Below, piece by piece: positions 7,858 to 23,580 of a stretch of 64,000 nucleotides of DNA. The stretch is taken from contig CAZSWV010000002.1 of NCBI GenBank assembly GCA_964611295.1, positions 8,303 to 72,302 on the forward strand, written 5' to 3'. The notes under the pieces are model-generated. The model searched no databases. It was not told the origin of the DNA and saw only the letters and a list, made by a program, of their open reading frames with translations. How positions within the stretch are numbered: position 1 is the first letter of the stretch; every line of letters begins with the position of its first letter. The position numbers and the translations under genes were made by a program. Source of the DNA: an uncultured Thermodesulfobacteriota bacterium (lineage in GTDB: Bacteria; Desulfobacterota; B13-G15).

Positions 7858-7921
7858 CGGCCTCCTTGATATTGTTATAATTTAAGCAAAAAACGCCAAA
7901 GAGAAAAACAGGGGTAAAAAA

Positions 7922-8647
7922 ATGAGAAGGCTCTTTGTCCCACCTGAGGAAATAGGTCCCAAGATCAAACTCAAAACGAAAGACCTGAAGTACCTCCTCC
8001 GGGTGTTGAGGCTTGAGACAGGAGATCTCGTAGAGGTGTTCGATGGAAAGGGCAACCGCTACAAGACGAGGATCGTACAATACGAAGACGGTTATTTCTT
8101 ACAGGTCCTCGAAGAATTAGAACCAGAGACCCAAAAAAGCCCCCGGATATGTTTGGGTCAGGGACTGTTGAAGGGCGAGAAGATGAAATGGGTCATCCAA
8201 AAGGCCACAGAACTTGGGGCAGAGATGATCGTACCGGTAAAGACCAGTAGGTCCATTCCCCTTCTAGAGGAGCAGGAAGCTAAAAGCAAGGTCGATAGAT
8301 GGAGGAAGATAGCCCAAGAGGCTGCAAAGCAGTCAAACCGCTCAACCGTCCCCCAGATACTTGAACCCATGGACCTAGAGGACTTCCTCGAGCTGGCAGA
8401 AGGGACCAAATTGGCCTTCTGGGAAAGGGCAAAGACAGGGTTCAAAGAGGCCATAAAAGATATAAAACCCGCAGATACCATCACCCTCCTTATAGGCCCC
8501 GAAGGGGGCTTCTCCGACAAAGAAGCCTCAAAGATAACCCAAAGCGGCTTCACCCTCTGTCACCTAGGCGAACGCATCCTCAGGGCAGAAACAGCCACCC
8601 TTGCAGCCATGACCATAACCCAATACCTATACGGAGACATAGGATAA
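7922..8647 (+). CDS. rsmE: 16S rRNA m3U1498 methyltransferase (copy 1)
   Basis: RVLRL, QKATELG, IGPEGGFS, LGERILRAETA. Confidence 0.93.
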   Translation: MRRLFVPPEEIGPKIKLKTKDLKYLLRVLRLETGDLVEVFDGKGNRYKTRIVQYEDGYFLQVLEELEPETQKSPRICLGQGLLKGEKMKWVIQKATELGAEMIVPVKTSRSIPLLEEQEAKSKVDRWRKIAQEAAKQSNRSTVPQILEPMDLEDFLELAEGTKLAFWERAKTGFKEAIKDIKPADTITLLIGPEGGFSDKEASKITQSGFTLCHLGERILRAETATLAAMTITQYLYGDIG

Positions 8648-8657
8648 AAACACTCCC

Positions 8658-8686
8658 TTGACACCACGAGAAAATACCTCTATCAT
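8658..8686 (+). promoter_or_regulatory. Sigma70-type promoter of the split glutamate synthase operon
   Basis: TTGACA (8658-8663), 17 bp spacer, TATCAT (8681-8686). Confidence 0.75.
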
Positions 8687-8690
8687 AAAA

Positions 8691-8717
8691 TACGGAAAAA
8701 AGTTACCGTTTTCCGTA
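8691..8717. promoter_or_regulatory. Palindromic operator, candidate NrpR site 1
   Basis: TACGGAAAA-N9-TTTTCCGTA inverted repeat just downstream of the -10; core GGAAAAAAGTTACCGTTTTCC is near-identical to the site upstream of nrpR and contains GGAA-N6-TACC. Confidence 0.7.
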
Positions 8718-8735
8718 AGAGGGGAGGGCTGGAGG

Positions 8736-9830
8736 ATGGTTGGTGGGGTGAAGGGTTTTGATGAGCGTAGGTTCAGGATCTCTTCTGGTTGTGGGGTAGT
8801 GGGTGTTATTGACCGAGAGGGGAGGCCGTTTTCGGGGGAATTAGTGGTTTCCTCTTTGTGTGTCCTTTCGGAGAGGGGGAATGGTCTTGGCAGTGGTTTT
8901 GCTGGCTACGGCATATATCCTGATCTCAAGGACTGTTTTTGTTTTCACGTGATGTATTACGGTACTGAGGTCAAAGAATTGCTCGAAGGGTATCTAAGGG
9001 AGCATTTCGAGATGGTTTTCTTTGAGCCCATTCCCACCAAGGAGGTAAAGGGCTTAGGGCCTTTGCCCCTTTTGTGGCGGTACTTTCTCAAGTGTAAAGA
9101 GGACCAAGGTTCAGAAGAGGAGGAGATACTGAGACACGTGATGTTCATAAACAGGAGGTTCCGAAAGGCGTGTGTTTTTTCTTCGGGAAAGAACATGGGG
9201 GTCTTCAAGGGTGTTGGGGAGCCTGAGGCCATAGCTGAGTTTTACAGGATACCCGATTACCAAGGATACATATGGATAGGACATACACGTTTCCCAACCA
9301 ATACCCCAGGTTGGTGGGGAGGTGCCCATCCTTTTAACGTTTTGGACTTGGCGGTTGTCCACAACGGTGAGCTCTCCTCCTATGGTACCAATAGGCGCTA
9401 CCTGGAATCCTGGGGGTATCAATGTACGCTTTTGACCGATACTGAAGTAATCGCTTACCTATTCGACTTACTTTACAGGAAGCACAAGTTGGACCTAGAC
9501 CTGGTGGTTAAGGTGCTTTCGCCTCCTTTTTGGTTCCAAATCCAAGAGGCGGAAAATGGGGAGAAAGAGCTGTTAAGGAGTTTAAGGATCATATATGGAG
9601 GCGCGCTCTTAAACGGGCCTTTTTCGGTAATTGTCGCTAGTTCCAACTGGATAGTGGGGCTTAACGACAGGATGAAGCTTCGGCCCTTGGTAGCTGCAAA
9701 AAGCGGGGATTTTCTCTATTTGGCCTCAGAAGAGGCGGCGATCAGGGCCATATGTCCAACTCCGGAAGAGGTCTGGAGGCCAGGGGCATTTGAGCCTGTA
9801 ATAGGGAGGGTAAAGGATGGTCAGACGTAG
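8736..9830 (+). CDS. Glutamate synthase, archaeal-type split form: class II glutamine amidotransferase subunit (GltB1-like)
   Basis: CGVVG near the N-terminus, ERGNGLG, HTRFPTNT, AHPF, VHNGE, TDTE, DRMKLRP; start set to ATG 8736. Confidence 0.88.
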   Translation: MVGGVKGFDERRFRISSGCGVVGVIDREGRPFSGELVVSSLCVLSERGNGLGSGFAGYGIYPDLKDCFCFHVMYYGTEVKELLEGYLREHFEMVFFEPIPTKEVKGLGPLPLLWRYFLKCKEDQGSEEEEILRHVMFINRRFRKACVFSSGKNMGVFKGVGEPEAIAEFYRIPDYQGYIWIGHTRFPTNTPGWWGGAHPFNVLDLAVVHNGELSSYGTNRRYLESWGYQCTLLTDTEVIAYLFDLLYRKHKLDLDLVVKVLSPPFWFQIQEAENGEKELLRSLRIIYGGALLNGPFSVIVASSNWIVGLNDRMKLRPLVAAKSGDFLYLASEEAAIRAICPTPEEVWRPGAFEPVIGRVKDGQT

Positions 9831-11334
9831 GAGACGCCCTGAGTTTTACGTAATCCGAGATTACAAAAGGTGTAACGAATGTAGGGCATGTGAGAGACTG
9901 TGTGCGTATGCTGTACATGTCTACGACAAAAAGACCCGTAGGTTGGAGGCCGAAGAACTCAAATGTGTGGGATGTCATTTCTGTGAGGAACATTGCCCCC
10001 AAGGGGCTATTCGGATAGAGCGCGCTTTATCCACTTTTAGTGAGGGGCGTTGGTCCACATATGACCTTTTCAATATATACAAGCAGGCGGAAACTGGAAG
10101 AGTGCTACTTACCAGTACGGGCTCCAATCGTCCCTACAGGGATTATTTTTCGCACATGGTCCTCAACGCAGCACAGGTCACCAATCCTTCCATCGACCCT
10201 TTGAGGGAGCCGGTGGAGATAAAGACCTTCATAGGCAAAAGGCCGACCCGTCTCCTCTATGAACGGGAGGGGCAAACCTTCAGGTTGAGGGTTTCTCTAG
10301 GTCCACTTTTGGAGATCGAGTCACCTATCATGTTTGCGGCCATGAGCTACGGTGCCTTGTCCCTTAATGCATGTAAGGCCTTGGCCATGGCGGCTTGTGA
10401 ATTCGGTACCTGTTGGAATACAGGAGAGGGAGGGCTTCATGAGGAATTGCGCCCATATGCCCATAGGGCGATAGTTCAAGTGGCTTCGGGACGATTCGGC
10501 GTAAACAGAGAGTATCTGGAGGCAGGTTGCGCCATAGAGATCAAGATAGGCCAAGGGGCAAAACCCGGCATAGGAGGACACCTACCTGGGGAAAAGGTCA
10601 CAGAAGAAATAGCGGCCACACGTATGATACCGCCAAGTACAGATGCGCTCAGTCCAGCCCCTCACCATGATATCTACTCCATAGAGGACCTGAAGCAACT
10701 TATCTACGCCCTTAAAGAAGCTACCGATTACAGTAAACCAGTAGGGGTCAAAATCGCTGCGGTTCACAACGTTGCGGCCATAGCCTCGGGTATAGTGAGG
10801 GCAGGCGCTGATTTTTTGGTCATCGACGGCCTCCATGGCGGGACCGGGGCGGCCCCTACCATGATAAGGGACAATATGGGTATCCCCGTGGAAATCGCGA
10901 TAGCCGTTGTAGACCAAAGGTTGAGGGATGAAGGGATAAGGGAGGAGGTAAGCCTTATAGCCTCAGGGGGTTTCAGGAACTCAGGGGATGTGGTCAAGGC
11001 CATTGCCCTGGGAGCTGATGCCGTCTACATAGGGACTGCGGCACTTTTGGCTTTGGGATGTCACCTATGTCGAAGTTGTCACCTAGGGAAGTGTAATTGG
11101 GGGATAGCCACCCAAGATCCTCAACTTTCAAAGAGGTTAAACCCCGAAGAGGGGGCCCAAAGGGCATATAACCTCTTACAAGCTTGGTCTCTCGAAATAA
11201 AGGAAATGCTCGGGGCAATGGGGATAAACGCGATAGAGTCCCTCAAGGGCAATAGAGAACAATTGCGCGCAGTCGGTCTCAACGAAAAGGAACTTAAGTT
11301 ATTGGGTATAAAACACGCAGGAGAACCTTGGTGA
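9817..11334 (+). CDS. Glutamate synthase, archaeal-type: FMN subunit with N-terminal 2x[4Fe-4S] domain (GltB2-like)
   Basis: CNECRACERLC and CVGCHFCEEHCP; MSYGALS, NTGEGG, QVASGRFG, GQGAKPGIGGHL, CHLCRSCHLGKC. Confidence 0.92.
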   Translation: MVRRRRRPEFYVIRDYKRCNECRACERLCAYAVHVYDKKTRRLEAEELKCVGCHFCEEHCPQGAIRIERALSTFSEGRWSTYDLFNIYKQAETGRVLLTSTGSNRPYRDYFSHMVLNAAQVTNPSIDPLREPVEIKTFIGKRPTRLLYEREGQTFRLRVSLGPLLEIESPIMFAAMSYGALSLNACKALAMAACEFGTCWNTGEGGLHEELRPYAHRAIVQVASGRFGVNREYLEAGCAIEIKIGQGAKPGIGGHLPGEKVTEEIAATRMIPPSTDALSPAPHHDIYSIEDLKQLIYALKEATDYSKPVGVKIAAVHNVAAIASGIVRAGADFLVIDGLHGGTGAAPTMIRDNMGIPVEIAIAVVDQRLRDEGIREEVSLIASGGFRNSGDVVKAIALGADAVYIGTAALLALGCHLCRSCHLGKCNWGIATQDPQLSKRLNPEEGAQRAYNLLQAWSLEIKEMLGAMGINAIESLKGNREQLRAVGLNEKELKLLGIKHAGEPW

Positions 11335-11340
11335 AGGGAG

Positions 11341-12087
11341 ATGGAGATGCGCGCCTGCACCATAGTTGACGTAACAGGACTTTCATATCGGACCTTGAAC
11401 GCCCTTTTAAGACATTTAGTCCAAAAGGGGGTAAGGGAGGTGATACTTAAAAATGTTTTGGGGCATAGGTTTATCGGAGCTGGCCTAAAGGCAGAAGGGA
11501 TTACGATCCATGTAGAAGGGACCCCGGGCAACGACTTGGGGGCTTTCATGGACGGGCCGACTTTGCTGGTATACGGGAATGCCCAAGACTGTGTCGCCAA
11601 TACCATGGATGCAGGCGAAATAGTTATCTACGGGGATGCGGGGGACCTTTTGGGGTACAGCATGCGTGGAGGAAGGGTTTTCGTAATGGGAGACGTCGGA
11701 TATAGAGTCGGCATCCACATGAAGGCTTGGGGCAGCCAAATGCCCGTAATCGTCATCGGCGGAAAGGCCTATGATTTCTTAGGTGAGTACATGGCCGGAG
11801 GGACAATAATAATACTGGGACTGAAGGGCGAGACCCTAAGGGGTAGCTTCATCGGTACAGGCATGCACGGGGGGACTATTTACATACGGGGAGAAGTTGA
11901 TAAACGCGCCTTGGCAAAAGAAGTCGAGGTGATGCCCTTAAAGGACGAAGACGTTTCCCTTTTGAAGAAACATATATACGACTTCTGTCAGTACTTCTCC
12001 TTCGACTTCCAGAAGATCATGAAAAGCGAATTTACAAAGTTAAAGCCCAAAGATATTCGTCCCTACGCTAGACTGTACTCCTACTGA
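11341..12087 (+). CDS. Glutamate synthase, archaeal-type: GXGXG beta-helix subunit (GltB3-like)
   Basis: Repeated G..M.GG/GXGXG units, GEYMAGG, GTGMHGG. Confidence 0.88.
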   Translation: MEMRACTIVDVTGLSYRTLNALLRHLVQKGVREVILKNVLGHRFIGAGLKAEGITIHVEGTPGNDLGAFMDGPTLLVYGNAQDCVANTMDAGEIVIYGDAGDLLGYSMRGGRVFVMGDVGYRVGIHMKAWGSQMPVIVIGGKAYDFLGEYMAGGTIIILGLKGETLRGSFIGTGMHGGTIYIRGEVDKRALAKEVEVMPLKDEDVSLLKKHIYDFCQYFSFDFQKIMKSEFTKLKPKDIRPYARLYSY

Positions 12088-12096
12088 AGGAAATTG

Positions 12097-12115
12097 TTGT
12101 AACAAAACTGTAACA
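12097..12115 (+). promoter_or_regulatory. Tandem TGTAACA box (11-bp period), candidate GlnR box 1
   Basis: TTGTAACAAAACTGTAACA upstream of amtB; 18/19 identical to the box before glnA; TATCTT -10-like element 11 nt downstream. Confidence 0.72.
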
Positions 12116-12162
12116 TTGCTGGTTTATATCTTAATAAAGCAAAGGCTAATAGGAGGTAAGAT

Positions 12163-13515
12163 ATGAGGAAATGGGTGATCTTATTAACTCTAATGCCCAA
12201 TACTGGCTTAGCTTTAGCCGGTGATCCGAGTGGTATTGAGACGTTACGTCATAATCCTGGTTTGCCTGTAGATTACATCTGGGTGCTTGTGTGCGCTTTT
12301 TTAGTCATGTTTATGCAGGCTGGTTTTGCCATGTTAGAAGCTGGTTTTTGCCGTTCGAAGAATGTGGCGAACTTAATTGCCAAAAATCTTATCGATTATG
12401 TCCTGGCTTCCTTGGTGTTCTTTGTGTTCGGTTACGCCTTGATGGTAGGAAATGACTGGAAAGGGATATTGGGGAGGTCAGGGTGGATGATGTTGGGTGA
12501 TGCATACGACGTCGGTAAGTATTTACAGCTCTTTTGGATGACGGTGTTCTGTGGGACAGCGGCCACTATAGTCTCAGGGGCAGTAGCTGAGCGGCTTAAG
12601 TTCGGGGCTTATCTCCTATACACCCTGATCGTAAGCTCCTTGATTTACCCTATATGTGGCCATTGGATTTGGGGAGGCGGCTGGTTGGCGAAGCTGCCCT
12701 TTGGGGTTGGGGCGGTTGACTTTGCTGGAAGTGGGGTGGTCCATGCCCTTGGAGGGTTAGTGGGGTTGGCGGGTGCTTACGTCCTTGGACCACGGTATGG
12801 TAAATACAGAAATGGGGCCCCTCAGGCCATTCCAGGACATAGCCTAGCCTTAGCAGGTCTTGGGGTATTTATCCTTTGGTTCGGGTGGTTTGGGTTTAAC
12901 GCAGGCAGTACCTATACAGCGCAACACCTCAGGATATCCGTCATAGCGGTCAACACTAACCTGGCAGCGGCAGCGGGAGGCCTTTCGGCCCTGTTAGCGT
13001 GTCTCTTTAAGACAAGGCGATGGGACGTGGGCCTTGGCTTAAACGGGGTGATCTCAGGGCTTGTGGCCATTACAGCTCCATGTGCCTGGGTTGAGGGATG
13101 GGCTTCGGTGTTGATTGGAGCGGTTGCCGGTGTCTTGATGTATCAAAGTGTGAGGTGGCTTGAAGAAAGGGGGATCGATGACCCCGTAGGTGCGGTGAGC
13201 GTGCATGGGATCTGTGGCCTATGGGGGATTTTGAGCGTAGGTATCTTCGCTGATGGTACATACGGGCTATATTCCTGTGACCCACCTTTCGTGAAAGGGT
13301 TGTTATATGGAGGAGGTTTTGGCCAGCTTATAAGCCAATCCGTATACGCAGTGGTGCTCTTTATATGGGCATTGGGCACAGGGCTGTTGATGTTCAAATT
13401 GATGGACAGGGCCTTCGGTATAAGGGTTAACCCCGAGGTCGAGATCAAAGGTCTCGATGTATCCGAGCACCATATATCTGCTTATCCAGAGTTTTCCACA
13501 AAAGGTATCCTTTAA
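12163..13515 (+). CDS. amtB: Ammonium transporter
   Basis: MQAGFAMLEAG, SGAVAER, DFAGSGVVH, WFGWFGFNAGS, DDPVGAVSVHG. Confidence 0.96.
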   Translation: MRKWVILLTLMPNTGLALAGDPSGIETLRHNPGLPVDYIWVLVCAFLVMFMQAGFAMLEAGFCRSKNVANLIAKNLIDYVLASLVFFVFGYALMVGNDWKGILGRSGWMMLGDAYDVGKYLQLFWMTVFCGTAATIVSGAVAERLKFGAYLLYTLIVSSLIYPICGHWIWGGGWLAKLPFGVGAVDFAGSGVVHALGGLVGLAGAYVLGPRYGKYRNGAPQAIPGHSLALAGLGVFILWFGWFGFNAGSTYTAQHLRISVIAVNTNLAAAAGGLSALLACLFKTRRWDVGLGLNGVISGLVAITAPCAWVEGWASVLIGAVAGVLMYQSVRWLEERGIDDPVGAVSVHGICGLWGILSVGIFADGTYGLYSCDPPFVKGLLYGGGFGQLISQSVYAVVLFIWALGTGLLMFKLMDRAFGIRVNPEVEIKGLDVSEHHISAYPEFSTKGIL

Positions 13516-13540
13516 GGTAAAGCCGAAAGGAGGTTTAGGG

Positions 13541-13882
13541 ATGAAAAAGATCGAAGCAATAATTCGACCAGAAAGACTAGAGGCAGTTAAAGAGGCTTTA
13601 AAAGCGACTCCCGGTTACTGCGGGATGAGCGTTACCGCCATACAAGGCCATGGTAGACAAGGTGGAATCGTCGAACAATTCCGGGGTCGTGAATTCAAGG
13701 TGGAAATGTTACCCAAGGTAAAGGTGGAGATAGTATGTTCAGACGAGCACCTAGAGGGATTGGTCAGTACCATCCTTTCAGTGGCAAAGACAGGGGAGAT
13801 CGGTGACGGGAAGATATTCATATACGAAGTCCTTGATGCCCTGAGGATCCGCACTGGTGAAAGGGGAAAAGGAGCCCTTTGA
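13541..13882 (+). CDS. glnK: PII nitrogen regulatory protein
   Basis: MKKIEAIIRP, GHGRQ T-loop, TGEIGDGKIF, IRTGE; RBS AAGGAGG before ATG 13541; directly after amtB. Confidence 0.92.
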   Translation: MKKIEAIIRPERLEAVKEALKATPGYCGMSVTAIQGHGRQGGIVEQFRGREFKVEMLPKVKVEIVCSDEHLEGLVSTILSVAKTGEIGDGKIFIYEVLDALRIRTGERGKGAL

Positions 13883-13902
13883 ACAAAGGTAAGGGGGAGC
13901 GT

Positions 13903-14616
13903 ATGGGAACGGTAGCGATATTCGTCCACGACCCAAAAGAGGGTGGAGGGAATATACGTAGTTTGCTTCTCAAGAAGGGGTTTACGGTGAGGGAGTTTCA
14001 CCTTTACAAAGGGGAAAGACCACAAGAAGCCTATAGATGCGACGCCCTTGTACTTATGGGAGGACCTATGAGCGTAAAGGAGGAAGATAGGTACCCCTTC
14101 TTAAAGACAGAGAAACTGTTCCTCGAGAAGTGGCTTAAATCAGGAAGACCCTTACTCGGAATTTGTCTCGGTGCCCAACTTATAGCCGATGTCCTCGGAG
14201 GAAGAGTCTACAAAGGACCCGTTCCAGAAATAGGTTGGAGCGAGGTGCGTTTGACCCTACAGGGCATGCAAGACCCTGTTTTCTCCAAATTCCCCTCGGC
14301 CATGTTGGTGTTTCAGTGGCATGAGGAAACCTTCGACCTTCCCGCCGGGGCGGTTCTACTTGCCAGTTCGCCGTTGTATCCTAACCAAGCCTATAGAATA
14401 GGCAAAACGGTTTACGGAGTCCAGTTCCACTTGGAAGTTACCTTTGAAATGGTAAAAGATTGGCTTAAAGAAGAGGACTTTCCCACCAATATCAAACAAG
14501 AGATCCTTAAGCAGTCCCTTTCGAACCTTCGAACCTTGAAGTCATATTGTGAGACACTAGTAGATCTCTTTAACGATGGGTTTAAATTGCAGCATACGAA
14601 AAGTCCTTCAAGGTAA
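13903..14616 (+). CDS. Class I glutamine amidotransferase (stand-alone GATase)
   Basis: MGGPMSV, GICLGAQ, QWHEETF, GVQFHLE (C-H-E triad). Confidence 0.88.
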   Translation: MGTVAIFVHDPKEGGGNIRSLLLKKGFTVREFHLYKGERPQEAYRCDALVLMGGPMSVKEEDRYPFLKTEKLFLEKWLKSGRPLLGICLGAQLIADVLGGRVYKGPVPEIGWSEVRLTLQGMQDPVFSKFPSAMLVFQWHEETFDLPAGAVLLASSPLYPNQAYRIGKTVYGVQFHLEVTFEMVKDWLKEEDFPTNIKQEILKQSLSNLRTLKSYCETLVDLFNDGFKLQHTKSPSR

Positions 14617-14622
14617 GGAGAA

Positions 14623-16344
14623 GTGAAAAAGCTTAGAATAGGATTAGCGCAGGCAAATATGGCTGTTGGAGATTTTAATGGGAATTATGAAAAAGTAAAG
14701 GAGTTCATAGATGAAGCAGAAAGGTACTCTGTTGATTTAATTTGCTTTCCAGAACTAACGCTAACAGGATATCCTCCTGAAGACCTCTTGTTAAGACGTG
14801 ATTTTATAGACGACAACCTAGCTGTCCTCAATGAGGTAGTCGCTTTTACTAGAGGAAGAAACATTGTAGTTGCCATAGGCTATGTCGATGTAGGAGATGG
14901 TCTTTATAATGCCTTAGCGGTCATCTATGATGGTGAAATTAAAGGGGTTTATCATAAAGTGTCTCTTCCAAATTATGGGGTATTTGACGAAAAGCGGTAT
15001 TTTTCCCAGGGTAAACGCCTAAACATTTTTGCCATACGGGGAACGAAGGTGGGTTTTAGCATCTGTGAGGATATATGGGATCCCTATGGTCCTGTTCCAA
15101 GGCAGGTGCTTGCGGGCGTAGACCTTTTGGTAAATGTGAGCGCTTCGCCGTATCACATCTCAAAAATACGTTTAAGGGAAGAAATGTTAAGGGTAAGGGC
15201 TCGTGATTTCAGGGTGCCGGTGGTCTATGTGAACTTAATAGGGGGGCAAGATGAGCTTGTTTTCGATGGGTCAAGTGTAGTCTTTGATCCTAAAGGGAGA
15301 ACAGTGGCTAGGGCCAAGAGTTTCGAAGAGGCCCTTCTTGTGGTGGATGTAGAGCCCAATATCATATACAAAGGATCATCACAAATTGGAGCTGCTAAAG
15401 GAAAGGTTCAAGAGGTGTCAATAGAAGGTCTTTCTATAGGTGAGAAACCGCCAATAACGCCTGTGATCTGTGAGCCTTTGCCCTTTCTAGAAGAGGTCTA
15501 TCAGGCCCTTCTATTAGGGACCAAGGATTACGTGCGCAAGAACGGATTTAATAAGGTAGTTATTGGGTTGTCTGGAGGAATCGATTCGAGCCTTGTTGCC
15601 ACAATAGCGGCTGATGCCTTGGGGCCAGAAAAGGTCGTGGGTGTGTTTATGCCCTCGCGTTATACTTCAGAAGAAAGTTCCCAAGCGGTAAAGCAACTTG
15701 CGGGGAACCTAGGTATAGAGCTATACATTATCCCCATAGAACCTGTGTTTAAATCCTACTTAGAATTATTGGGTGTATATCTTTCGAAGGCATCAAGCGG
15801 AGTTGCTGAAGAAAACCTCCAGGCACGCATCCGAGGTAACATCCTGATGGCCCTCTCTAATTCCTTTGGCTGGTTAGTGCTCACCACCGGCAATAAGAGC
15901 GAACTTGCCTGTGGATATGCTACCCTTTATGGGGATATGGCTGGTGGATTTGCGGTGATAAAGGACCTTCCTAAAACCTTGGTATACGAGCTTGCCCGTT
16001 GGAGGAACAAAAAGGCTGGGCGAGACTTGATCCCCCAAATCGTCCTCACCAGACCTCCTTCTGCAGAATTGAGGCCGGGGCAGAAGGACACAGATGATCT
16101 ACCTCCCTATGAGGTATTGGACCCTATAATGGAACTTTATGTGGAAGAAGGCCTTTCAATAGAGGAAATTGTCAAAGAAGGGTTTGATAAAGGGTACGTA
16201 GAGAATGTGGTTCAAAGACTTAAAAACAGCGAATACAAACGCAGGCAAGCCCCTCCAGGTATTAAGGTCACCCCACGTGCTTTTGGCAAGGATTGGCGGA
16301 TGCCTATTACGAACAGGTGGAGGCCTTTTGTAACAAAAATGTAA
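14623..16344 (+). CDS. nadE: Glutamine-dependent NAD+ synthetase
   Basis: Nitrilase-like domain (FPEL, YHK..LPNY.VFDEKRYF, SICED) plus synthetase domain (GLSGGIDS, ENLQARIR, TGNKSE, PSAEL, EYKRRQ). Confidence 0.96.
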   Translation: MKKLRIGLAQANMAVGDFNGNYEKVKEFIDEAERYSVDLICFPELTLTGYPPEDLLLRRDFIDDNLAVLNEVVAFTRGRNIVVAIGYVDVGDGLYNALAVIYDGEIKGVYHKVSLPNYGVFDEKRYFSQGKRLNIFAIRGTKVGFSICEDIWDPYGPVPRQVLAGVDLLVNVSASPYHISKIRLREEMLRVRARDFRVPVVYVNLIGGQDELVFDGSSVVFDPKGRTVARAKSFEEALLVVDVEPNIIYKGSSQIGAAKGKVQEVSIEGLSIGEKPPITPVICEPLPFLEEVYQALLLGTKDYVRKNGFNKVVIGLSGGIDSSLVATIAADALGPEKVVGVFMPSRYTSEESSQAVKQLAGNLGIELYIIPIEPVFKSYLELLGVYLSKASSGVAEENLQARIRGNILMALSNSFGWLVLTTGNKSELACGYATLYGDMAGGFAVIKDLPKTLVYELARWRNKKAGRDLIPQIVLTRPPSAELRPGQKDTDDLPPYEVLDPIMELYVEEGLSIEEIVKEGFDKGYVENVVQRLKNSEYKRRQAPPGIKVTPRAFGKDWRMPITNRWRPFVTKM

Positions 16345-16346
16345 CA
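16328..16346 (+). promoter_or_regulatory. Tandem TGTAACA box (11-bp period), candidate GlnR box 2
   Basis: TTGTAACAAAAATGTAACA overlapping the nadE stop, upstream of glnA; TATCCT -10-like element 9 nt downstream. Confidence 0.72.
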
Positions 16347-16390
16347 AATAGAGGATATCCTTTTGTCAAAACGGGACAGGAGGTGTCAAG

Positions 16391-17725
16391 ATGCAAAATC
16401 TGCCGGATTCCAAGGAATATGTGTTAGAAAAGGTGAGGGAACACCATGTGAAGTTCATCAAGTTGTGGTTCACTGACATACTGGGGTTCTTGAAAAGCTT
16501 CACCATCACCGCTGAAGAACTGCCAGAGGCGCTTGAAGAAGGGGTTGGCTTTGACGGTTCATCAGTAGAAGGGTTTGTAAGGATAGAGGAAAGCGACATG
16601 ATCGCCATGCCAGACCCTTCTACCTTCTGCATCCTCCCTTGGCGTCCAAAGGAGTACGCAGTTGCTAGGATGTTTTGCGATATCTACAGGCCAGACGGCA
16701 CACCTTTTGAAGGAGATCCAAGGTACGTACTCAAACGCAACCTGAAGAAGGCCGCGGATTTAGGGTTTACATATTACGTGGGCCCAGAACTGGAGTATTT
16801 CTATTTCAAATCCAACAACAATACTGAGTTTCTTGATATGGGAGGATATTTTGACGTTACCCCTTTGGATATGGCGGTAGATCTTAGGCGCCAAACTGTA
16901 CTGATGCTGGAAGAAATGGGAATTGCAGTAGAATACAGCCACCATGAAGTTGCTTATAGTCAGCATGAAGTGGACATAAAATACAGTGATGCTTTGACTA
17001 TGGCAGATAACGTTATGACCTATAAAGTAGTTGTTAAACAAGTGGCTTTGATGAACGGCGTATACGCGACATTTATGCCAAAGCCAGTGTTCGGGATAAA
17101 TGGAAGTGGCATGCATACCCATCAATCGCTCTTTAAAGATGGGAAGAATGCCTTCTTCGATCCGCATGATCCTTATAACCTATCGGAGATAGGTAAGCGT
17201 TTTATAGCTGGCCTTCTCAAGCATGCAAGGGAGATAACGGCTATTACATGTCAATGGGTGAACTCGTACAAGAGGTTGGTTCCAGGTTATGAGGCTCCTG
17301 CTTATATCTCCTGGGGACGCAAGAACAGGTCAGCGTTGGTAAGGGTTCCTGAATATAAACCGGGGAAAGAACAAGCTACAAGGGCTGAATATCGTGCCCC
17401 TGATCCTGCCTGTAACCCTTATTTGGCTTTTGCGGTCATGTTGGCTGCAGGGCTCAAAGGGATAGAGGAAGGGTATGAACTCCCTCCTCCCGTTGAGGTA
17501 GACGTCTATAGGTTGACCGAAGAAGAACGGAAGTCCTTGGGCATAGAGACCTTACCAGCGAATCTCGGCGAGGCCCTCTACGAAATGGAAAGGAGCAAGC
17601 TGGTTTTAGAATGCCTTGGGGAACACGTCTTTTGGAGCTTTATCCGGAATAAAAAGGCCGAATGGGACGAATGGAGGGCTCAGGTCACAGAGTACGAAAT
17701 CCGGAAGTATCTGCCCATACTTTAA
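16391..17725 (+). CDS. glnA: Glutamine synthetase type I (alpha-type length, 444 aa)
   Basis: FDGSS, GPELEYF, HHEVA..QHE, TFMPKP..GINGSGMH, SYKRLVPGYEAP, NRSALVRVP, EYRAPDP. Confidence 0.97.
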   Translation: MQNLPDSKEYVLEKVREHHVKFIKLWFTDILGFLKSFTITAEELPEALEEGVGFDGSSVEGFVRIEESDMIAMPDPSTFCILPWRPKEYAVARMFCDIYRPDGTPFEGDPRYVLKRNLKKAADLGFTYYVGPELEYFYFKSNNNTEFLDMGGYFDVTPLDMAVDLRRQTVLMLEEMGIAVEYSHHEVAYSQHEVDIKYSDALTMADNVMTYKVVVKQVALMNGVYATFMPKPVFGINGSGMHTHQSLFKDGKNAFFDPHDPYNLSEIGKRFIAGLLKHAREITAITCQWVNSYKRLVPGYEAPAYISWGRKNRSALVRVPEYKPGKEQATRAEYRAPDPACNPYLAFAVMLAAGLKGIEEGYELPPPVEVDVYRLTEEERKSLGIETLPANLGEALYEMERSKLVLECLGEHVFWSFIRNKKAEWDEWRAQVTEYEIRKYLPIL

Positions 17726-17740
17726 CGGTATAGGGAGGAG

Positions 17741-18391
17741 ATGTTGCAAGGGATCTACATAGGCGATAAGGACAGTGTAAGGCTTCCTTACATACAGGGG
17801 CTCAAATGGGAGACCATAGGTCTCAAGGAGTGGGTTGAAGAAGGGGGATGGCCTATAAGGGGTGATGTGGTCCTTTTTTCGGCTCAAAGTCCTGGTGTCG
17901 CAAGGGAGGTGTTGAAGGGATTGAAGGAGTTCTTGCGTCCTCCTTCAATCCCTTGCCTCGCCTTAGTTTCCTCTTCGCTCTTGTCCCATGAATGGCTTTT
18001 TGAGCAAGTGAAGGATTTCCTCGTCGAGCCCTTTTCCCAGGAGGAACTCTGCTTAAGGCTGAAAAAGGCTATAAGAGAGGTCTACGGTTTGAAGGAAGAA
18101 GGACTCATAAAGAAAGGAGACATATGTGTTGACTTAAGGTCTCACACAGTGACCGTTAAGGGAAGGGTCATAGCGCTTAGTTTGAAAGAATACGAACTGT
18201 TACAGGTTCTCATCACCAATGCGGGTAAAACCTTCACCCGTGAGAACCTCCTTAATCGCATATGGGGATACGATTACTTCGGAGGTGAAAGAACCGTAGA
18301 CGTCCACATCAGACGTCTAAGGGCCAAATTAGGCGAGGCAAGTTCCCATATCGAAACGGTACGCGGCATAGGATATAAGTTCAAAGATTAA
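17741..18391 (+). CDS. OmpR/PhoB-family regulator with atypical receiver domain, resembling actinobacterial GlnR
   Basis: C-terminal WGYDYFGGERTVDVHIRRLRAKLG; receiver has DVVLFSA (phospho-Asp replaced by Ser) and EPF instead of KPF; no kinase nearby; follows glnA. Confidence 0.8.
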   Translation: MLQGIYIGDKDSVRLPYIQGLKWETIGLKEWVEEGGWPIRGDVVLFSAQSPGVAREVLKGLKEFLRPPSIPCLALVSSSLLSHEWLFEQVKDFLVEPFSQEELCLRLKKAIREVYGLKEEGLIKKGDICVDLRSHTVTVKGRVIALSLKEYELLQVLITNAGKTFTRENLLNRIWGYDYFGGERTVDVHIRRLRAKLGEASSHIETVRGIGYKFKD

Positions 18392-18492
18392 GGCCTTTTT
18401 CGCCCTGGCCAACCGAGGATATCTAGAAGCTCTACCCCTCTATTTCCTCTCTTGACAAACTATCCCGTTTTCGTTTACATACCCCGAACAAA

Positions 18493-18513
18493 GGAAAAAG
18501 GTTACCTTTTTCA
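18493..18513. promoter_or_regulatory. Palindromic operator, candidate NrpR site 2 (autoregulation)
   Basis: GAAAAAGGT-T-ACCTTTTTC perfect inverted repeat between TTGACA (18452-18457) and the nrpR start. Confidence 0.72.
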
Positions 18514-18525
18514 ATATGGTGGTCC

Positions 18526-19527
18526 ATGGTAGGTGAAGTTGAAAGGAAGATAATGGCTATCCTTAGGGTCTTAAAGGATGCGGATGGTCCCCTAGGGGCC
18601 CGTGCCATCTCGGAGAAATTGAAGGAGGAAGGGGTTTATTTGACCGAAAGGGCTGTGCGATATCACCTGAAGATCATGGACGAGAGGGGATGGACGGCGC
18701 TTGTAGGTCGACGAGATGGCAGGGTGGTGACCGAGTTGGGCCTTAGGGAACTTGAAAATGCCCGGGTTAGGGACAAGGTAGGGTATGTCCTTACCAAGAT
18801 CGAAGCCTTGGCCTTTATGACCTCTTTTGACCTCGAAAAGGGCAAAGGCACAATTCCTGTAAACCTTTCCCTTGTTCCAGAGAAGAGGTTAGGGGATGTT
18901 TTAAAGGCCATGAAGTTGGCCTTTAAGGCCGGTCTATGTGTCAGCGAGAGGATAAAGCTGGTTTGGCCTGGTGAAAAAGTTGGGACTTTTCGCGTCCCTG
19001 AGGGGAAAGTGGGGGTGTTTACTGTTTGCAGCATAGTCATAAATGGGGTGCTACTTAAGGCTGGTGTGCCCATGGATTCCAAATTTGGCGGGATCCTCCA
19101 ATTAAGTGGAGGAAAGGCCTTACGGTTTGTGGAGTTGATCCATTATGCGGGCTCTTCCCTTGATCCTTCAGAAGCCTTCATAAGGGCGTCGATGACTTCG
19201 GTGAGGGAGGCTGCAAAGACGGGAAATGGCAACGTCCTGGCCAATTTCCGGGAAATCCCAGCGGTATGTAAGCAGGTGGTGGAAGACTTGTTAGCTGGAC
19301 TTAAGGGGGTCGGGATAGGAGGGGTGATAGCCTTAGGCAAAGTAGGCGAGGACGTATGTGAAGTGCCTGTCGAAAGGGGCAAGGTGGGGATGGTATTACT
19401 TGGAGGGCTCAACCCCATTGCTTGTGCCCACGAAATGGGGATTCCTACGGAGAACAAGGCTATGGCTATGGTCATGTCTTATGAAGAGATGGTCCCATTG
19501 GACGATTACCTTTCAAAAATAAATTGA
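18526..19527 (+). CDS. nrpR: NrpR-family nitrogen repressor (wHTH plus a single DUF128/NRD module)
   Basis: GARAIS..L..EG..LTERAVRYHLKIMDE, TVCSIVINGVLLKAGVP, I.Y.GSSLDPSEAF, LANFREIP, GGLNPIA..HE. Confidence 0.9.
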   Translation: MVGEVERKIMAILRVLKDADGPLGARAISEKLKEEGVYLTERAVRYHLKIMDERGWTALVGRRDGRVVTELGLRELENARVRDKVGYVLTKIEALAFMTSFDLEKGKGTIPVNLSLVPEKRLGDVLKAMKLAFKAGLCVSERIKLVWPGEKVGTFRVPEGKVGVFTVCSIVINGVLLKAGVPMDSKFGGILQLSGGKALRFVELIHYAGSSLDPSEAFIRASMTSVREAAKTGNGNVLANFREIPAVCKQVVEDLLAGLKGVGIGGVIALGKVGEDVCEVPVERGKVGMVLLGGLNPIACAHEMGIPTENKAMAMVMSYEEMVPLDDYLSKIN

Positions 19528-19539
19528 GGAGGTGGAGAC

Positions 19540-21117
19540 ATGAACTTACACAGGCCAAACGCAAACGATGCAACTCAAACTGCAAATCGGTCTCGCAACG
19601 TTGCACCTAACTCTGGATTATGTTCGCGATGCATAGATGGCTGCACTGGGTTTTGTGAGGTCTTCAAAGCCTCATTTAGGGGGAGAGAGGTCATTTACCC
19701 GAGTCCTTTCGGCCTGATAACAGCAGGTGCTGATAAGGAGTATCCTGTTGATTACTCTCATTTGCAGATCCAAGGTTATGCATCAGGGGCAAAGGGGATT
19801 GAGGAGGCTGACCCAGATCATGCTATCTTTCCAGCTGTGGATACCACTACGTCCTATGGTTACCATTATAAAGTTGTGATGAAGCTTCCCATCTTTACAG
19901 GTGCCCTTGGTTCTACCGATATAGCGCGAAGAAACTGGGAGCATTTCGCAGTTGGAACTGCTATATCTGGCATAAGCATAGTCTGCGGTGAGAACGTCTG
20001 TGGTGTGGATCCTCAAGCGGAGTTTAAGAACGGCAAGGTCGTAGAATCCCCTGAGATGAGGAGGAGAGTAGAGCTTTACAAGAGGTGGCATGAAGGATAC
20101 GGTGACATCCACGTGCAGTTAAACGTAGAAGACACGCGCATGGGTGTCGCCGAATACGTGATAGAAAAGCTAGGGGTTGAAACCATAGAACTTAAGTGGG
20201 GACAAGGAGCCAAGTGCATAGGAGGCGAGATAAAGGTGGAATCTTTGGAAAGGGCCCTTGAACTCCAGCGGCGCGGATATATAGTGACGCCAGATCCATC
20301 TCTACCAGCGAATCAGGAGGCTTTTCGCAAGGGGGCTTTGAAGGCCTTTGAAAGGCATTCGAGGCTTGGGTTCATAGAGGAAGAAGCCTTTTACAAGGAA
20401 GTGGAAAGGTTGAGGAGGCTGGGGGCAAAGCGTGTGACCTTGAAGACAGGAGCTTACAGCATGGTGGAGTTGGCAAAAGCCTTGAAGTGGGCTTCAAGGG
20501 CAAGGCTGGATCTCGTTACTATCGATGGAGCAGGTGGTGGCACGGGTATGAGCCCTTGGAGGATGATGAACGAATGGGGCATCCCTACTTTCTACCTCCA
20601 AGCACTTACCTACGAGTTCTGCCAGAAACTTGCCTCACGAGGGGAATGGGTTCCCGATATAGCTATCGCAGGTGGCTTCTCTACCGAAGACCACGTTTTC
20701 AAGGTGATCGCTATGGGTGCCCCGTGGGTCAAAGCCGTATGTATGGGAAGGGCCTTGATGATACCAGGAATGGTGGGTAAGAACATCGGCGAATGGCTAA
20801 AACAAGGTAAGCTTCCGAAAAACGTGGCAGAATACGGTAACACCGTAGAGGAGATCTTCGTATGCTATGAGACCCTTAGGGAAAAATACGGAGACCAAAT
20901 AAAGGAGATACCCCTTGGGGCAATCGCCATCTACACCTTCTGCGACAAGATAAAAGTAGGACTCCAACAACTAATGGCAGGTTCCCGTAACTTCAAAATA
21001 TCCACCATATCCCGCAAAGACCTAATGGCCCTTACACGAGAAGCTGCCGAAATATCAGGCATTCCCTACGTCATGGAGGCTCAGAGGGAAGAAGCAGAAA
21101 GGATCCTTGAAAGTTAA
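19540..21117 (+). CDS. FMN-binding glutamate synthase family protein (stand-alone, function uncertain)
   Basis: ELKWGQGAK..GGE, IDGAGGGTGMSP, AGGFS, AMGAP..KAVCMGRA; N-terminal CSRCIDGCTGFC. Confidence 0.82.
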   Translation: MNLHRPNANDATQTANRSRNVAPNSGLCSRCIDGCTGFCEVFKASFRGREVIYPSPFGLITAGADKEYPVDYSHLQIQGYASGAKGIEEADPDHAIFPAVDTTTSYGYHYKVVMKLPIFTGALGSTDIARRNWEHFAVGTAISGISIVCGENVCGVDPQAEFKNGKVVESPEMRRRVELYKRWHEGYGDIHVQLNVEDTRMGVAEYVIEKLGVETIELKWGQGAKCIGGEIKVESLERALELQRRGYIVTPDPSLPANQEAFRKGALKAFERHSRLGFIEEEAFYKEVERLRRLGAKRVTLKTGAYSMVELAKALKWASRARLDLVTIDGAGGGTGMSPWRMMNEWGIPTFYLQALTYEFCQKLASRGEWVPDIAIAGGFSTEDHVFKVIAMGAPWVKAVCMGRALMIPGMVGKNIGEWLKQGKLPKNVAEYGNTVEEIFVCYETLREKYGDQIKEIPLGAIAIYTFCDKIKVGLQQLMAGSRNFKISTISRKDLMALTREAAEISGIPYVMEAQREEAERILES

Positions 21118-21139
21118 AGTTACTTGTTAAGTTTTTTGG

Positions 21140-21184
21140 CAAAAAGGGGAAGGCCTGTTAAAGTGGCTTTCCCCTTTTTGTTTC
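21140..21184 (+). terminator. Rho-independent terminator (possibly bidirectional) closing the nitrogen cluster
   Basis: CAAAAAGGGGAAGGCC-loop-GGCTTTCCCCTTTTTGTTT. Confidence 0.8.
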
Positions 21185-21200
21185 GGTATAAACTTAAAGG

Positions 21201-23580
21201 TGTGAGGGAGGTATTGGAAAAGTTGTATAGACCTATTGAGTTCGCCTTGAGGCGGGAAGGGAACTTGCGTCAGTTAAAGGGCCTTGAGCGGTTTTTCTTG
21301 GTGGGCACAGAGGAGCTTGAAAAGTTTGTGGAGGCTCGGGAATTGAAGGGGCTTATCGAAAGGCTAAGGGAGCTCTTTAGGGGTTTTGACCAAAAGGGGG
21401 ATCAGGAGAAGAAGAGGGCCGTAGTTGAAGCAAAGGTTATCTTGGAGGAGATCGGTAACCGTTTGGGAGGGCAAGAGAAGGTCGACCTATGGAGGATTCC
21501 CTTAAGTGAGGTGAAAGGAGTAGGGCGTAAGACCTATGAACTCTTAAAACGGAAGGGGCTTTTCACAGTTGGGGATGCCTTGTGGAACCTACCCATACGT
21601 TATGAGGACAGGAGGGAATTGAAAAAGTTCTTTCAATTAGTCCCAGGAGAGTGGGCGACAGCAGTGGGAAAGGTCCTGGCTATAAACGAGGTCACCTATC
21701 CTAAAAGCAGGCGCAAGGTTCTAGAGGTGCTAATAGGAGACGATACGGGCTTTTTGACGGCTAAGTGGTTCCAAGGGTGGGACTATCTTAAAAAGGTCCT
21801 TAAGATAGGCACAAAGGTGGTCTTTTCGGGGGAGATAAAGGGCTTTGGGGATCAGAAAGAAGTCTTACATCCTGACCTTGAAGTGCTAGATGAGGAGGGT
21901 GATCTGAGCATCCATTTCGGGAGGATAGTCCCAGTTTATCCTTCTTCTGAAGGCCTAAAGCAGAAGAGGATGCGCTCTATAATGTACGAAGTGGTTTCAC
22001 GATTTGCGCACAAGGTAAGGAGTGCGGTTCCTTTCGAAGTGGAATTGAGATGTGGTCTTTTGCCCTTGGACAAGGCCTTACAGGAGGTCCATTTCCCTTC
22101 AGATCCAAAGCAATTGGAGAACCTAAGGCGTGGGGTGTCACCTTATCATCAACGGCTTGCCTTTGAGGAGCTTTTCTTGCTGGAGTTGGCATTGGCCTTA
22201 AAAAGGCAAGAGGTCAAAAGGGCCAAAGGGATATCCATGCGCATAGAAGGCGTAGAGATGCTAGACGAATTCATAAAAGGCCTCCCTTTCACATTGACTG
22301 AGGCCCAACGGCGGGTCCTTGAGGAGATCAAACAAGACCTTTCGAAGCCATATCCTATGTATCGATTGTTGCAAGGCGATGTAGGTAGCGGTAAAACCGT
22401 GGTGGCCCTGGCAGCTTCGGTCATTTGTATAGCCAATGGTTACCAAGTAGCCATGATGGCTCCTACGGAGATATTGGCCGAACAACATTTCCAGACCGCT
22501 AAGGAGTTTCTGTCACCTCTGGGGGTAAAGGTGGCGATTTTGACCTCGCGTATAAGGGGAGTGGAAAGGAATGTGTTGCTTGGAGATATAGCCCTAGGGG
22601 AAGTAGGGGTTATAGTTGGAACCCATGCCCTTATACAGGAAGAGGTGCGTTTTAAGAAACTCGGACTCGTCATTGTGGATGAACAGCATAGGTTTGGGGT
22701 GCTACAGAGGGCCAAGTTGTATCAGAAAGGGGAGATGCCGCATTTACTTGTCATGACGGCTACCCCTATACCGAGAACCTTAGCCATGACCCTTTATGGA
22801 GATATGGAGGTTTCGATAATAGACCAAATGCCTCCCCATAAGGCCTCGATTGAGACCCTATTGTTCTGGGAGGAAGAGGCAGAGAAGGCCTATGAGATAT
22901 TAGCCAAAGAGGTCCGAAAAGGGCGCCAAGCCTATGTTATCTACCCCTTGATAGAGGAATCCGAGCAACTTGACCTTAAAAACGCAAAAGAGGGGGCTAG
23001 GAACCTTTCTAAGAGATACCCTGAATTCAAAGTGGCCCTTATACATGGACGCATGCGCCAAGAAGAAAAAAACAGGATAATGGAGTCCTTCAGGAGGGGA
23101 GAGATACAGGTCTTGGTATCCACTACCATTGTAGAAGTAGGTATAGACGTACCGAACGCCACTGTGATCCTTGTCGAAGAGGCCCAAAGGTTCGGACTCG
23201 CACAGTTACACCAATTGAGAGGTAGGGTGGGGAGGGGGGCTTATAGTTCCTATTGCTTACTTGTGGCAAGGGGGAATTTAACAGAAGAGGCCAAAAGGAG
23301 GCTTAAGGTGATGGAGGAAACTAACGACGGCTTCCGTATAGCAGAAGAGGACCTCGCCATAAGGGGACCAGGGGACATTATGGGCATAAGACAGTGGGGA
23401 CAGATGAAGTTCAAAGTAGCAGAACTACCGAGGGACTTGAGGCTTTTACTTTTGGCAAGAAGGGAGGCCTTTAGGCTGATAAAGGAGGATCCCACCCTTG
23501 ATTCCCCTCATTACAGGCAGCTAAAAGAACTGGTCATGCAAAAATGGGGTGAGAAATTGGATTTAGCAACCATAGGTTGA
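21201..23580 (+). CDS. recG: ATP-dependent DNA helicase RecG
   Basis: RLLQGDVGSGKT, APTEILAEQH, DEQHRFG, MTATPIPRT, QLHQLRGRVGRG; start uncertain (ORF opens at 21124, but GTG ~21201 lies after the terminator). Confidence 0.95.

Follow-up and report, generated by a model that had tools for sequence, protein, structure and literature searches.

Control of nitrogen assimilation in bacteria is usually described in terms of a few lineage-specific systems, namely NtrBC with sigma-54, NtcA, TnrA/GlnR of the MerR type, AmtR or, in actinobacteria, GlnR of the OmpR type, and NrpR is treated as an archaeal regulator. Here, we describe a nitrogen-assimilation gene cluster of an uncultured Thermodesulfobacteriota bacterium that encodes both a GlnR-like OmpR-family protein (P0001) and NrpR, and that contains two DNA motifs, A and B, which are the predicted sites of these regulators, respectively. 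The cluster lies in a stretch of 64,000 nt (the window; contig C2:8303-72302), and coordinates are positions in the window unless a contig or locus is named; the genes, promoters and motif sites of the cluster are all on the + strand. The genome under study (G000; 1,604,474 bases in 24 contigs, 49.7% G+C) was compared with eight other genomes of its family (f1) and 13 genomes of the sister family (f2).

The boxes of actinobacterial GlnR consist of GTAAC half-sites with 6-nt spacing, and residues R186, V190, R193 and R194 of SaeGlnR read the GTAAC consensus (PMC10235972, section 5). P0001 resembles the actinobacterial proteins (8HIG, 8HML and 8HIH) in its OmpR-type winged helix, the same four base-contact residues and the lack of an adjacent kinase gene, and the two systems share the half-site, its spacing, the position of the box over a weak -35 element and, as predicted here, amtB and glnA among the targets. 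The differences are the host, which belongs to the Thermodesulfobacteriota and has relatives of the protein in Dehalococcoidia, a more degenerate receiver that falls below Pfam GlnR_1st, and the presence of one box with two half-sites per promoter, where two boxes comprising four sites are usual. A further similar system is that of PhoB and its pho box, with a tandem 7-bp repeat of 11-bp periodicity that replaces the -35 element, and the recognition helix of E. coli PhoB is almost identical. However, the half-site is GTAAC here and not TGTCA, the regulator gene is linked to glnA and not to pst/pho genes, and the regulator has a pseudo-receiver.

NrpR of M. maripaludis is released from DNA by 2-oxoglutarate (PMC4902934), and the archaeal operator consensus is given in PMC2723118 as GGAAN6TTCC. 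The NrpR encoded here shares with the M. maripaludis protein the HTH_12 plus NRD architecture, a 4-N6-4 palindromic operator (GGAA-N6-TACC here, GGAAN6TTCC there) located at or after the promoter, and nitrogen-assimilation genes as (predicted) targets. It differs in having a sigma-70-type promoter, a single NRD domain and a third half-site after 2 nt, and its predicted targets are glutamate synthase genes, not nif, glnA or amtB. NrpR levels in methanogens are not nitrogen-regulated, as reported in PMC9765008, whereas autoregulation is predicted here. NrpR homologues of the same family have been recorded in Dehalococcoides and attributed to gene transfer (Gao and Gupta 2007, PMC1852104); in the accessible text of that paper, their presence is reported without an operator, a regulon or a partner regulator.

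Control of the nitrogen genes of Desulfovibrio is by sigma-54 enhancer-binding proteins (PMC4641369). The NtrC/sigma-54 systems of Desulfovibrio and Proteobacteria covered there, which include those of the nearest well-studied diderm anaerobes, perform the same task of controlling amtB-glnK, glnA and glutamate synthase, but no sigma-54-type promoter is present in the intergenic regions of the cluster described here. Searches of the open-access literature gave no description of an operator or a regulon for bacterial NrpR, and OmpR-type GlnR was described there for actinobacteria only; the NrpR work found was limited to methanogens and the 2007 record of Dehalococcoides homologues. A preliminary description of this DNA, made from the sequence alone, had noted that the division of labour between the two regulators was not known to have been described in a diderm anaerobe, and no published account of a GlnR-like/NrpR pairing was found in that literature.

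It is likely that the cluster consists of four transcription units and that each of two regulators acts on them through a DNA site of its own. Under nitrogen-replete conditions, NrpR would bind the operators at 8694 and 18493, both of which closely follow a TTGACA-N17 promoter, and would block the three-piece glutamate synthase operon and its own operon, which comprises nrpR and a 525-amino-acid (aa) flavin mononucleotide (FMN)-binding glutamate-synthase-family gene. Under nitrogen limitation, 2-oxoglutarate would rise and NrpR would be released. The GlnR-like protein would bind tandem GTAAC-N6-GTAAC boxes at 12097 and 16328, which would cover the -35 region of promoters without a recognisable -35 hexamer, and would activate amtB-glnK-amidotransferase-nadE and glnA together with its own gene; activation of this kind is modelled on actinobacterial GlnR and on PhoB at pho boxes. 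We observed that the sites exist, that they are conserved and nearly unique in the genome, and that they occur together with the gene for the corresponding regulator; we infer that the regulators bind them, whether they activate or repress, which effectors they sense and where the operons begin and end.

Motif B and the predicted bacterial NrpR operator

The nrpR gene (18526..19527; 333 aa) encodes a winged-helix domain and one NrpR regulatory domain (Pfam HTH_12, 9.1e-19, and NRD1_2, 2.1e-83), and the sole PDB match of the product is the M. jannaschii NrpR-like protein 3nek (2.3e-28). A sigma-70-type promoter, TTGACA-N17-TTACAT (18452..18480; read from the sequence), precedes the gene and is followed 12 nt after TTACAT by motif B site 2, GGAAA-AAGG-TTACC-TT-TTTCA (18493..18513). 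Since this putative operator is placed after a promoter of that type, autoregulation is predicted. Motif B site 1, GGAAA-AAAG-TTACC-GT-TTTCC (8694..8714), which is the predicted NrpR operator of the gltB operon, starts 7 nt after the -10 hexamer of TTGACA-N17-TATCAT (8658..8686), the best promoter-like match in 7800-21400 (11/12 positions). Both positions are repressor-like. Position 8658 had been taken for the start of an open reading frame (ORF), but is the -35 hexamer of this promoter, and the first gltB piece begins with the ATG at 8736.

The preliminary description had given motif B at 8694 and 18493 as a palindrome comparable to the archaeal GGAA-N6-TTCC. Both sites are exact matches to the motif, and shuffled sequences gave a mean of 0.02 matches. 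The palindrome is a near-palindrome and not a perfect one, as the reverse complements of the sites have 3 and 2 mismatches to the pattern. Likewise, the archaeal layout applies to the first 14 bases (GGAA-N6-TACC), which are followed by the third half-site, and not to the outer GGAA...TTCC, where the spacing is N13. When up to four mismatches were allowed, a genome-wide search returned both sites and weak matches, of which those inspected were mostly intragenic.

A survey of species-representative genomes for bacterial nrpR yielded at least 594 stretches encoding relatives, of which the best 80 (52-70% identity), mostly from Syntrophales/Smithella and Dehalococcoidia, were used. The strict pattern GG[CT]AA-N4-TT[GA]CC occurs 52 times in 802 kb around the 80 nrpR genes, as compared with 3.3 times in shuffles; 46 of these matches are located within 130 nt upstream of nrpR and two precede the 525-aa gene. 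An operator is thus found upstream of nrpR in 46/80 loci with the strict pattern and in 67/80 with a relaxed one, against 30/1600 and 76/1600 random windows, respectively. The consensus is GGCAA-N4-TTGCC(-N2-TTGCC), with the third half-site present after 2 nt in 31 of the 67 loci; its core, GGCA-N6-TGCC, shares the 4-N6-4 arrangement of the archaeal operator. Forty of the 44 loci having a TTGAC[AG] hexamer have the operator starting 30-34 nt after it, i.e. directly after the -10 element, and the promoter-then-operator layout is seen in 44 of the 46 strict-operator loci.

A matrix built from the 46 foreign sites ranked site 1 first (score 21.2) and site 2 third (15.0) of ~3.2 million positions in the genome under study. 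The second-ranked match (63359-63383) lies within the 3' end of a 594-aa ORF and was treated as chance. Motif B therefore appears, by this comparison, to be the local version of the bacterial nrpR operator, with the form GGAAA-N4-TTACC-N2-TTTCC/TTTCA. NrpR is encoded by 7/8 other f1 genomes and 0/13 f2 genomes and sporadically across the phylum. A related element is found in every readable nrpR upstream region of f1. In G001 and G003, the operator lies between the divergent nrpR and 525-aa genes, and in G007 an operator identical to site 1 at 18/21 positions precedes a truncated remnant of gltB piece 1. No motif B site is present in any of nine gltB loci from NrpR-negative genomes. Among the other NrpR-positive genomes, the gltB gene of G040 is preceded by GGAAATGTATTGCC, which was seen by eye, scores <11 with the matrix and was not counted as an operator, and gltB of G033 is inside an operon.

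No N4-type site was found by the matrix at the distant NrpR loci of G022, G025, G031 and G037. Palindromes of the GGCAA-N2-TTGCC type, e.g. CGGCAATATTGCCG, precede nrpR in L009-L013 and L015 (G022, G025, G031, G033 and G037), and these may represent another operator spacing or the site of a different protein.

Other matrix and pattern matches in the genome were considered as extra regulon members and rejected as intragenic or unrelated. Those treated as chance are C13:11821, C3:66488, C10:28320, C6:85663, C2:4697, C2:71661 (window 63359), C8:51193, C8:67152, C11:23696 and a hairpin at C5:103865. The last (C5:103865-103886; L081:3366-3386) is a perfect hairpin-type palindrome, GGGAAAAAG-TTCG-CTTTTTCCC, upstream of a K+/H+ antiporter gene pair (a TrkA_C gene and a Na+/H+ exchanger gene); it is only superficially like motif B and is probably an RNA stem-loop.

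The 525-aa gene and glutamate synthase in relatives

The FMN-binding glutamate-synthase-family gene (525 aa; 19540..21117) was named from Pfam Glu_synthase (1.1e-16) and atlas cluster names. Its product has no NCBIfam model match and in the PDB matches only designed TIM barrels. In 21/80 bacterial loci the gene follows nrpR in the same orientation at a distance of up to ~3 kb, and in four more it lies upstream; in the present cluster it is probably co-transcribed with nrpR. The 25 loci with such a neighbour belong to Syntrophales and Dehalococcoidia. In f2, it is directly upstream of the gltB pieces. Given these links to nrpR and, in f2, to gltB, both predicted NrpR targets in the present cluster would be glutamate-synthase-type genes.

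A search of the eight further genomes of f1 did not reveal the split gltB. Truncated remnants of gltB piece 1, with the N-terminal GCGITG motif, were observed in L053 (G007; 12677-13003) and L048 (G004; 13900-14200), where they adjoin nrpR or nadE in relatives without the split glutamate synthase. L053 contains an assembly gap with duplicated flanks. The remnants suggest loss in those lineages rather than gain in the genome under study. In the f2 loci L064-L066 (G014, G010 and G012), a conserved leader ~60-170 nt upstream of gltB piece 1 includes a promoter of the TTGACA type, a short hairpin (agacacg...gtgtc) and a stem rich in G and C that is followed by a T run (gggcgtc-loop-gacgccc-ttttt). 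It looks like an attenuator or an unknown riboswitch, and has no Rfam match in L064 and L065.

Motif A and its conservation

Motif A site 1, TTGTAACAAAACTGTAACA (12097..12115), ends 48 nt before the amtB ATG. The distance from the end of site 2, TTGTAACAAAAATGTAACA (16328..16346), to the glnA ATG is 45 nt, and this site overlaps the stop codon of nadE. The two predicted GlnR-like boxes are identical at 18/19 positions, and have exactly the form of the half-sites known for GlnR upstream of amtB and glnA (gTnAc/GaAAC, spaced by 6 nt). Both match exactly the motif reported earlier at 12097 and 16328, no other match with up to two mismatches is present in the window, and none occurred in 100 shuffles. 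The simpler pattern GTAAC-N6-GTAAC occurs three times in the whole genome, at both motif A sites and at one intragenic position on contig C13. Random scatter over the genome had been named as an outcome that would argue against the two motifs; both are essentially unique in the 1.6-Mb genome.

Orthologues of P0001 (E 1e-40 to 1e-56) are encoded by 5/8 other f1 genomes and 8/13 f2 genomes, and are located beside or near glnA in 10 loci in either gene order. In each of the 12 genomes in which the orthologue is intact and the sequence before glnA can be read (G000, G002, G004, G005, G007, G008, G010, G013, G015, G018, G019 and G020), GTAAY-N6-GTAAC is found ~45-50 nt before the glnA ATG. The box is kept in both the glnA->regulator and the regulator->glnA orders, and when 13 regions upstream of glnA were aligned, no block other than the two GTAA blocks and the ATG was invariant. 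Across 535 kb of the relatives' loci, the pattern falls almost exclusively before glnA. Conversely, the box before glnA is absent from 13 genomes without an intact orthologue, namely G001, G003 and G006 of f1 and ten phylum-level genomes. In G006, the GlnR-like gene 3' of glnA (L092, contig C6, ~645-985) is a frameshifted, partly deleted pseudogene, and the nadE-glnA spacer has no GTAAC box. A motif A matrix derived from the relatives only ranked the glnA site first in the genome under study; the amtB site was recognised through its 18/19 identity to the glnA site.

Identity of the GlnR-like protein

P0001 (17741..18391; 216 aa) matches Trans_reg_C alone in Pfam (1.3e-27). Its receiver is degenerate, with Ser at the phospho-acceptor position and Glu in place of the conserved Lys (canonical register, by eye), and a manual reading showed a residue other than Asp at the acceptor position in 11/12 orthologues covering the region. 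The gene is an orphan, having glnA and nrpR as its neighbours and no adjacent kinase gene. The neighbours identified for the relatives' orthologues by tblastn with the proteins of this cluster only are glnA, the class-I amidotransferase or nrpR.

The best PDB matches of P0001 are GlnR of S. erythraea and M. tuberculosis (8hig, 6e-31; 8hml, 5e-29; 8hih, 1e-28). Of these, 8HIH and 8HML are identified as GlnR in PMC10235972, and from the shared sequence numbering we infer the same for 8HIG. When a profile of the 56-member family was compared with the PDB, GlnR scored 180 bits (8hig) and 174 bits (8hih) and RegX3 scored 160 bits; the GlnR DNA-binding domain alone gave 160 bits, as compared with 119 for VicR and 107 for PhoB domains, 119 bits being the highest score of any other chain that consists of a DNA-binding domain only. 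The base-contacting residues R186, V190, R193 and R194 of SaeGlnR align to identical residues of P0001, R184, V188, R191 and R192. The label of an actinobacterial-type GlnR, which the protein had been given before, is thus backed by the best PDB matches, the conserved base-contact residues and the identical GTAAC half-site. As to family models, 13/56 family members match Pfam GlnR_1st (PF21695) at E<=0.01, the best with 28.2 and 29.4 bits against a cut-off of 27 bits, which is reached by no protein in this genome or in 14 control genomes. The best NCBIfam match of P0001 is PhoB with 113 bits, far under the cut-off of 296 bits. On sequence grounds, P0001 is best termed GlnR-like, as a candidate member of the GlnR family.

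Pairing of motifs and regulators

Relatives with a single regulator carry only its matching motif. In f2, the GlnR-like gene (8/13 genomes) is accompanied by motif A before glnA, and NrpR is lacking (0/13). G001 and G003 have NrpR and a motif B site, and neither a GlnR-like orthologue nor motif A. This double dissociation separates the two motif-regulator pairs without appeal to similarity to known systems. The assignment of motif A to the GlnR-like protein and of motif B to NrpR, which had been proposed from this locus only, thus survives phylogenetic footprinting and the double dissociation, and both regulators remain the predicted ligands of their motifs.

Both Dehalococcoidia genomes tested that have nrpR (2/2) carry strong members of the GlnR-like family (256-270 bits) within gltB or amtB clusters, and therefore the pairing is not unique to the lineage under study. 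In one of them, GTAAC-N6-GTAAC-N6-GTAAC precedes amtB-glnK-glnA. Two Syntrophales genomes and one Chloroflexota genome gave weaker family matches only, and the Chloroflexota protein has a canonical receiver. Five Dehalococcoidales loci (L131, L156, L165, L166 and L179) have a canonical OmpR regulator of a different subfamily, with Asp and Lys intact, just before nrpR. In L156 and L165, the nrpR promoter has GTTAC-N6-GTAAC repeats abutting its -35 element and the NrpR operator after its -10 element; the canonical regulator may provide a second control layer on nrpR.

The claim that sigma-54/NtrC elements are absent holds for the cluster and not for the genome. A scan for -24/-12 promoters (TGGCAC-N5-TTGC, up to two mismatches) found 18 matches in the window, where 26 were expected, and no intergenic region of the cluster contains one. 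In the genome, by contrast, RpoN is encoded, together with at least three full-length matches to enhancer-binding proteins. A sigma-54 reading of GGCAA-N4-TTGCC was also considered and rejected: the element is one base shorter than TGGCAC-N5-TTGC and is located after a TTGACA-N17 promoter, GC dinucleotides are missing from the local sites, and matches in the window are at the level expected by chance.

Evidence against the proposed circuit and alternative explanations

Several observations weigh against the two-regulator circuit. For the identity of P0001, RegX3 is nearly as good a single-sequence PDB match as GlnR (3e-28 vs 6e-31), and P0001 matches neither Pfam GlnR_1st, even at E<=1, nor Response_reg. 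Conserved contact residues alone do not distinguish GlnR, because PhoB shares much of the recognition helix. For motif A, relatives have no counterpart of the amtB box, which the relatives-only matrix does not place in its top 15 because the spacers differ; G009 has GTAAT-N6-GTAAT before glnA, yet only canonical response regulators were found in that genome; and the -10 hexamer is not confidently placed at the motif-A promoters. For motif B, the closest relatives show spacing variants of the operator, with N3 and not N4, and distant NrpR loci (36-44% identity) show GGCAA-N2-TTGCC-like palindromes by eye. In addition, related genomes are not independent samples. Finally, the hints from sequencing runs are weak. 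In one RNA-library run, contigs are 95-98% identical to parts of gltB, the GXGXG-amtB junction, amtB, nadE and glnA, and the contig bridging 11906-12146 has five differences, all outside motif A; in a DNA contig from another run, five differences flank motif B site 2 and none falls within it. These are contigs of low depth, which cannot show transcript starts, strand or level, and DNA carry-over is possible.

Because the -10 hexamer is not confidently placed, the GlnR-like protein, when bound to motif A, could occlude the core promoters of amtB and glnA and so be a repressor or a dual regulator, which we regard as unlikely. In favour of this, the boxes are merely 45-48 nt from the start codons, and one possible assignment of hexamers, by our own reading, puts the second half-site within the spacer. 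Moreover, a title in the reference list of PMC4641369 states that actinobacterial GlnR negatively regulates ald. On the other hand, no TTGACA-like hexamer is present near either motif A site, and TATCTT or TATCCT occurs 10-13 nt downstream of the sites. With these as the -10 element, the box would span about -41 to -23, where OmpR-family class II activators sit. PhoB boxes occupy a comparable position. GlnR-activated promoters also have a non-optimal -35 element and class II-like contacts, as reported in PMC10235972.

The two regulators might also meet at the gltB and nrpR promoters, if the central GTTAC of motif B served as a half-site for the GlnR-like protein as well. This cross-talk is compatible with the two-regulator circuit, and we give it a small chance. 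GGTTACC has GTNAC on both strands, GTTAC or GTAAC is kept in 5/7 f1 operators, and in Dehalococcoidales a canonical OmpR gene precedes nrpR in five loci, two of which (L156 and L165) have GTTAC-N6-GTAAC at the -35 element. However, most bacterial operators (GGCAA-acga-TTGCC) have no GTNAC core, and a single half-site is a poor target for a tandem-binding OmpR-type protein.

It is very improbable that motif A is bound by another, canonical OmpR/PhoB-type regulator and that the pseudo-receiver protein does something else. The genome has two more OmpR-family genes (C1:178739 and C6:114355), PhoB-type recognition helices are very similar, and G009 keeps a box with only canonical regulators found. 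Nevertheless, the box tracks the pseudo-receiver gene in 12/12 genomes and is lost with it in G001, G003 and G006, all of which retain canonical regulators.

Least credible is the reading that motif B works in the 5' leader as a hairpin of the RNA, for attenuation or stability, or is the site of a protein other than NrpR, since this near-perfect palindrome in a transcribed leader, though flagged on the minus strand by a terminator scan, accompanies nrpR genes across two phyla in the known layout of the archaeal NrpR operator, is conserved only in its outer 5-mers (21 different spacers among 46 sites), has in 9/46 sites a C/A half-site pair that breaks the RNA base pair and fits a protein operator better, would form a 5-bp stem too short for stability, and, at E<=0.1, corresponds to no Rfam family, either in 7800-21400 or in the four other loci searched.

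Gene content and genomic context

The gene list of the preliminary description was confirmed by Pfam and NCBIfam. Glutamate synthase is encoded in three pieces: a class-II glutamine amidotransferase domain (8736..9830; Pfam GATase_2, GATase_6 and GATase_7), orthologues of which in relatives are 48-59% identical, a 4Fe-4S dicluster plus FMN domain (9817..11334; Glu_synthase, 6.8e-141, and Fer4 families) and a GXGXG domain (11341..12087; GXGXG, 2e-35). The next predicted unit begins with the ammonium transporter gene amtB (12163..13515; Ammonium_transp, 2.6e-122) and glnK for the PII signal protein (13541..13882), which is part of a long ORF that matches Pfam P-II from residue 29, the ATG at 13541 being preceded by GGAGG. 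These genes are followed by a class-I glutamine amidotransferase gene (13879..14616; GATase, 4.6e-21) and nadE for glutamine-dependent NAD+ synthase (14623..16344; NCBIfam NF010588, 736 bits, above the cut-off). In G005, G008, G013 and G019, too, the class-I amidotransferase gene lies beside glnA or the GlnR-like gene, and it may be a conserved regulon member.

The type I glutamine synthetase gene, glnA (16391..17725; NCBIfam TIGR00653, 554.8 bits, above the cut-off), precedes the gene for P0001. The two regulator genes had been described as back to back at 17741-19527; they are adjacent, but are arranged in tandem on the same strand. The gene after the 525-aa gene is recG.

The nearest records to this DNA are metagenome-assembled genomes of uncultured Thermodesulfobacteriota. 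At least half of the sampled words of a 10-kb stretch were present in 12 sequencing runs, which are labelled as hot-springs metagenome or, in one case (X7), with a coded organism name.

Implications for nitrogen control in anaerobes

Both regulator families are known; the apparent novelty lies in the operators and targets that they have in these bacteria, and in the split of the glutamine synthetase-glutamate synthase (GS-GOGAT) pathway between them. Tentatively, and with somewhat more doubt than confidence, we suggest that a GlnR-type pseudo-receiver regulator and a bacterial NrpR may form a recurrent, undescribed two-sensor nitrogen circuit in anaerobes, which would replace NtrBC/sigma-54 in the control of glutamine synthetase, glutamate synthase and ammonium uptake. 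The pairing was seen in one Thermodesulfobacteriota family and in Dehalococcoidia.

About 100 related loci and the present one predict GlnR-type regulators with GTAAC boxes in Thermodesulfobacteriota and probably Dehalococcoidia, a defined operator of bacterial NrpR, GGCAA-N4-TTGCC(-N2-TTGCC), and a GS-GOGAT pathway that can be divided between two regulators. Because all these groups are uncultured or hard to grow, such operator predictions are a practical route to their regulation, and the locus would offer a simple way to study an archaeal-type repressor with bacterial RNA polymerase.

If the circuit is as proposed, the GlnR/GTAAC-box system would not be an actinobacterial invention, and NrpR with its 4-N6-4 operator would have moved between archaea and bacteria as a working unit. 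In the organism itself, NrpR would report 2-oxoglutarate and gate glutamate synthase, and the GlnR-like protein would report a second signal, e.g. glutamine or the PII state, and gate ammonium uptake and glutamine synthetase.

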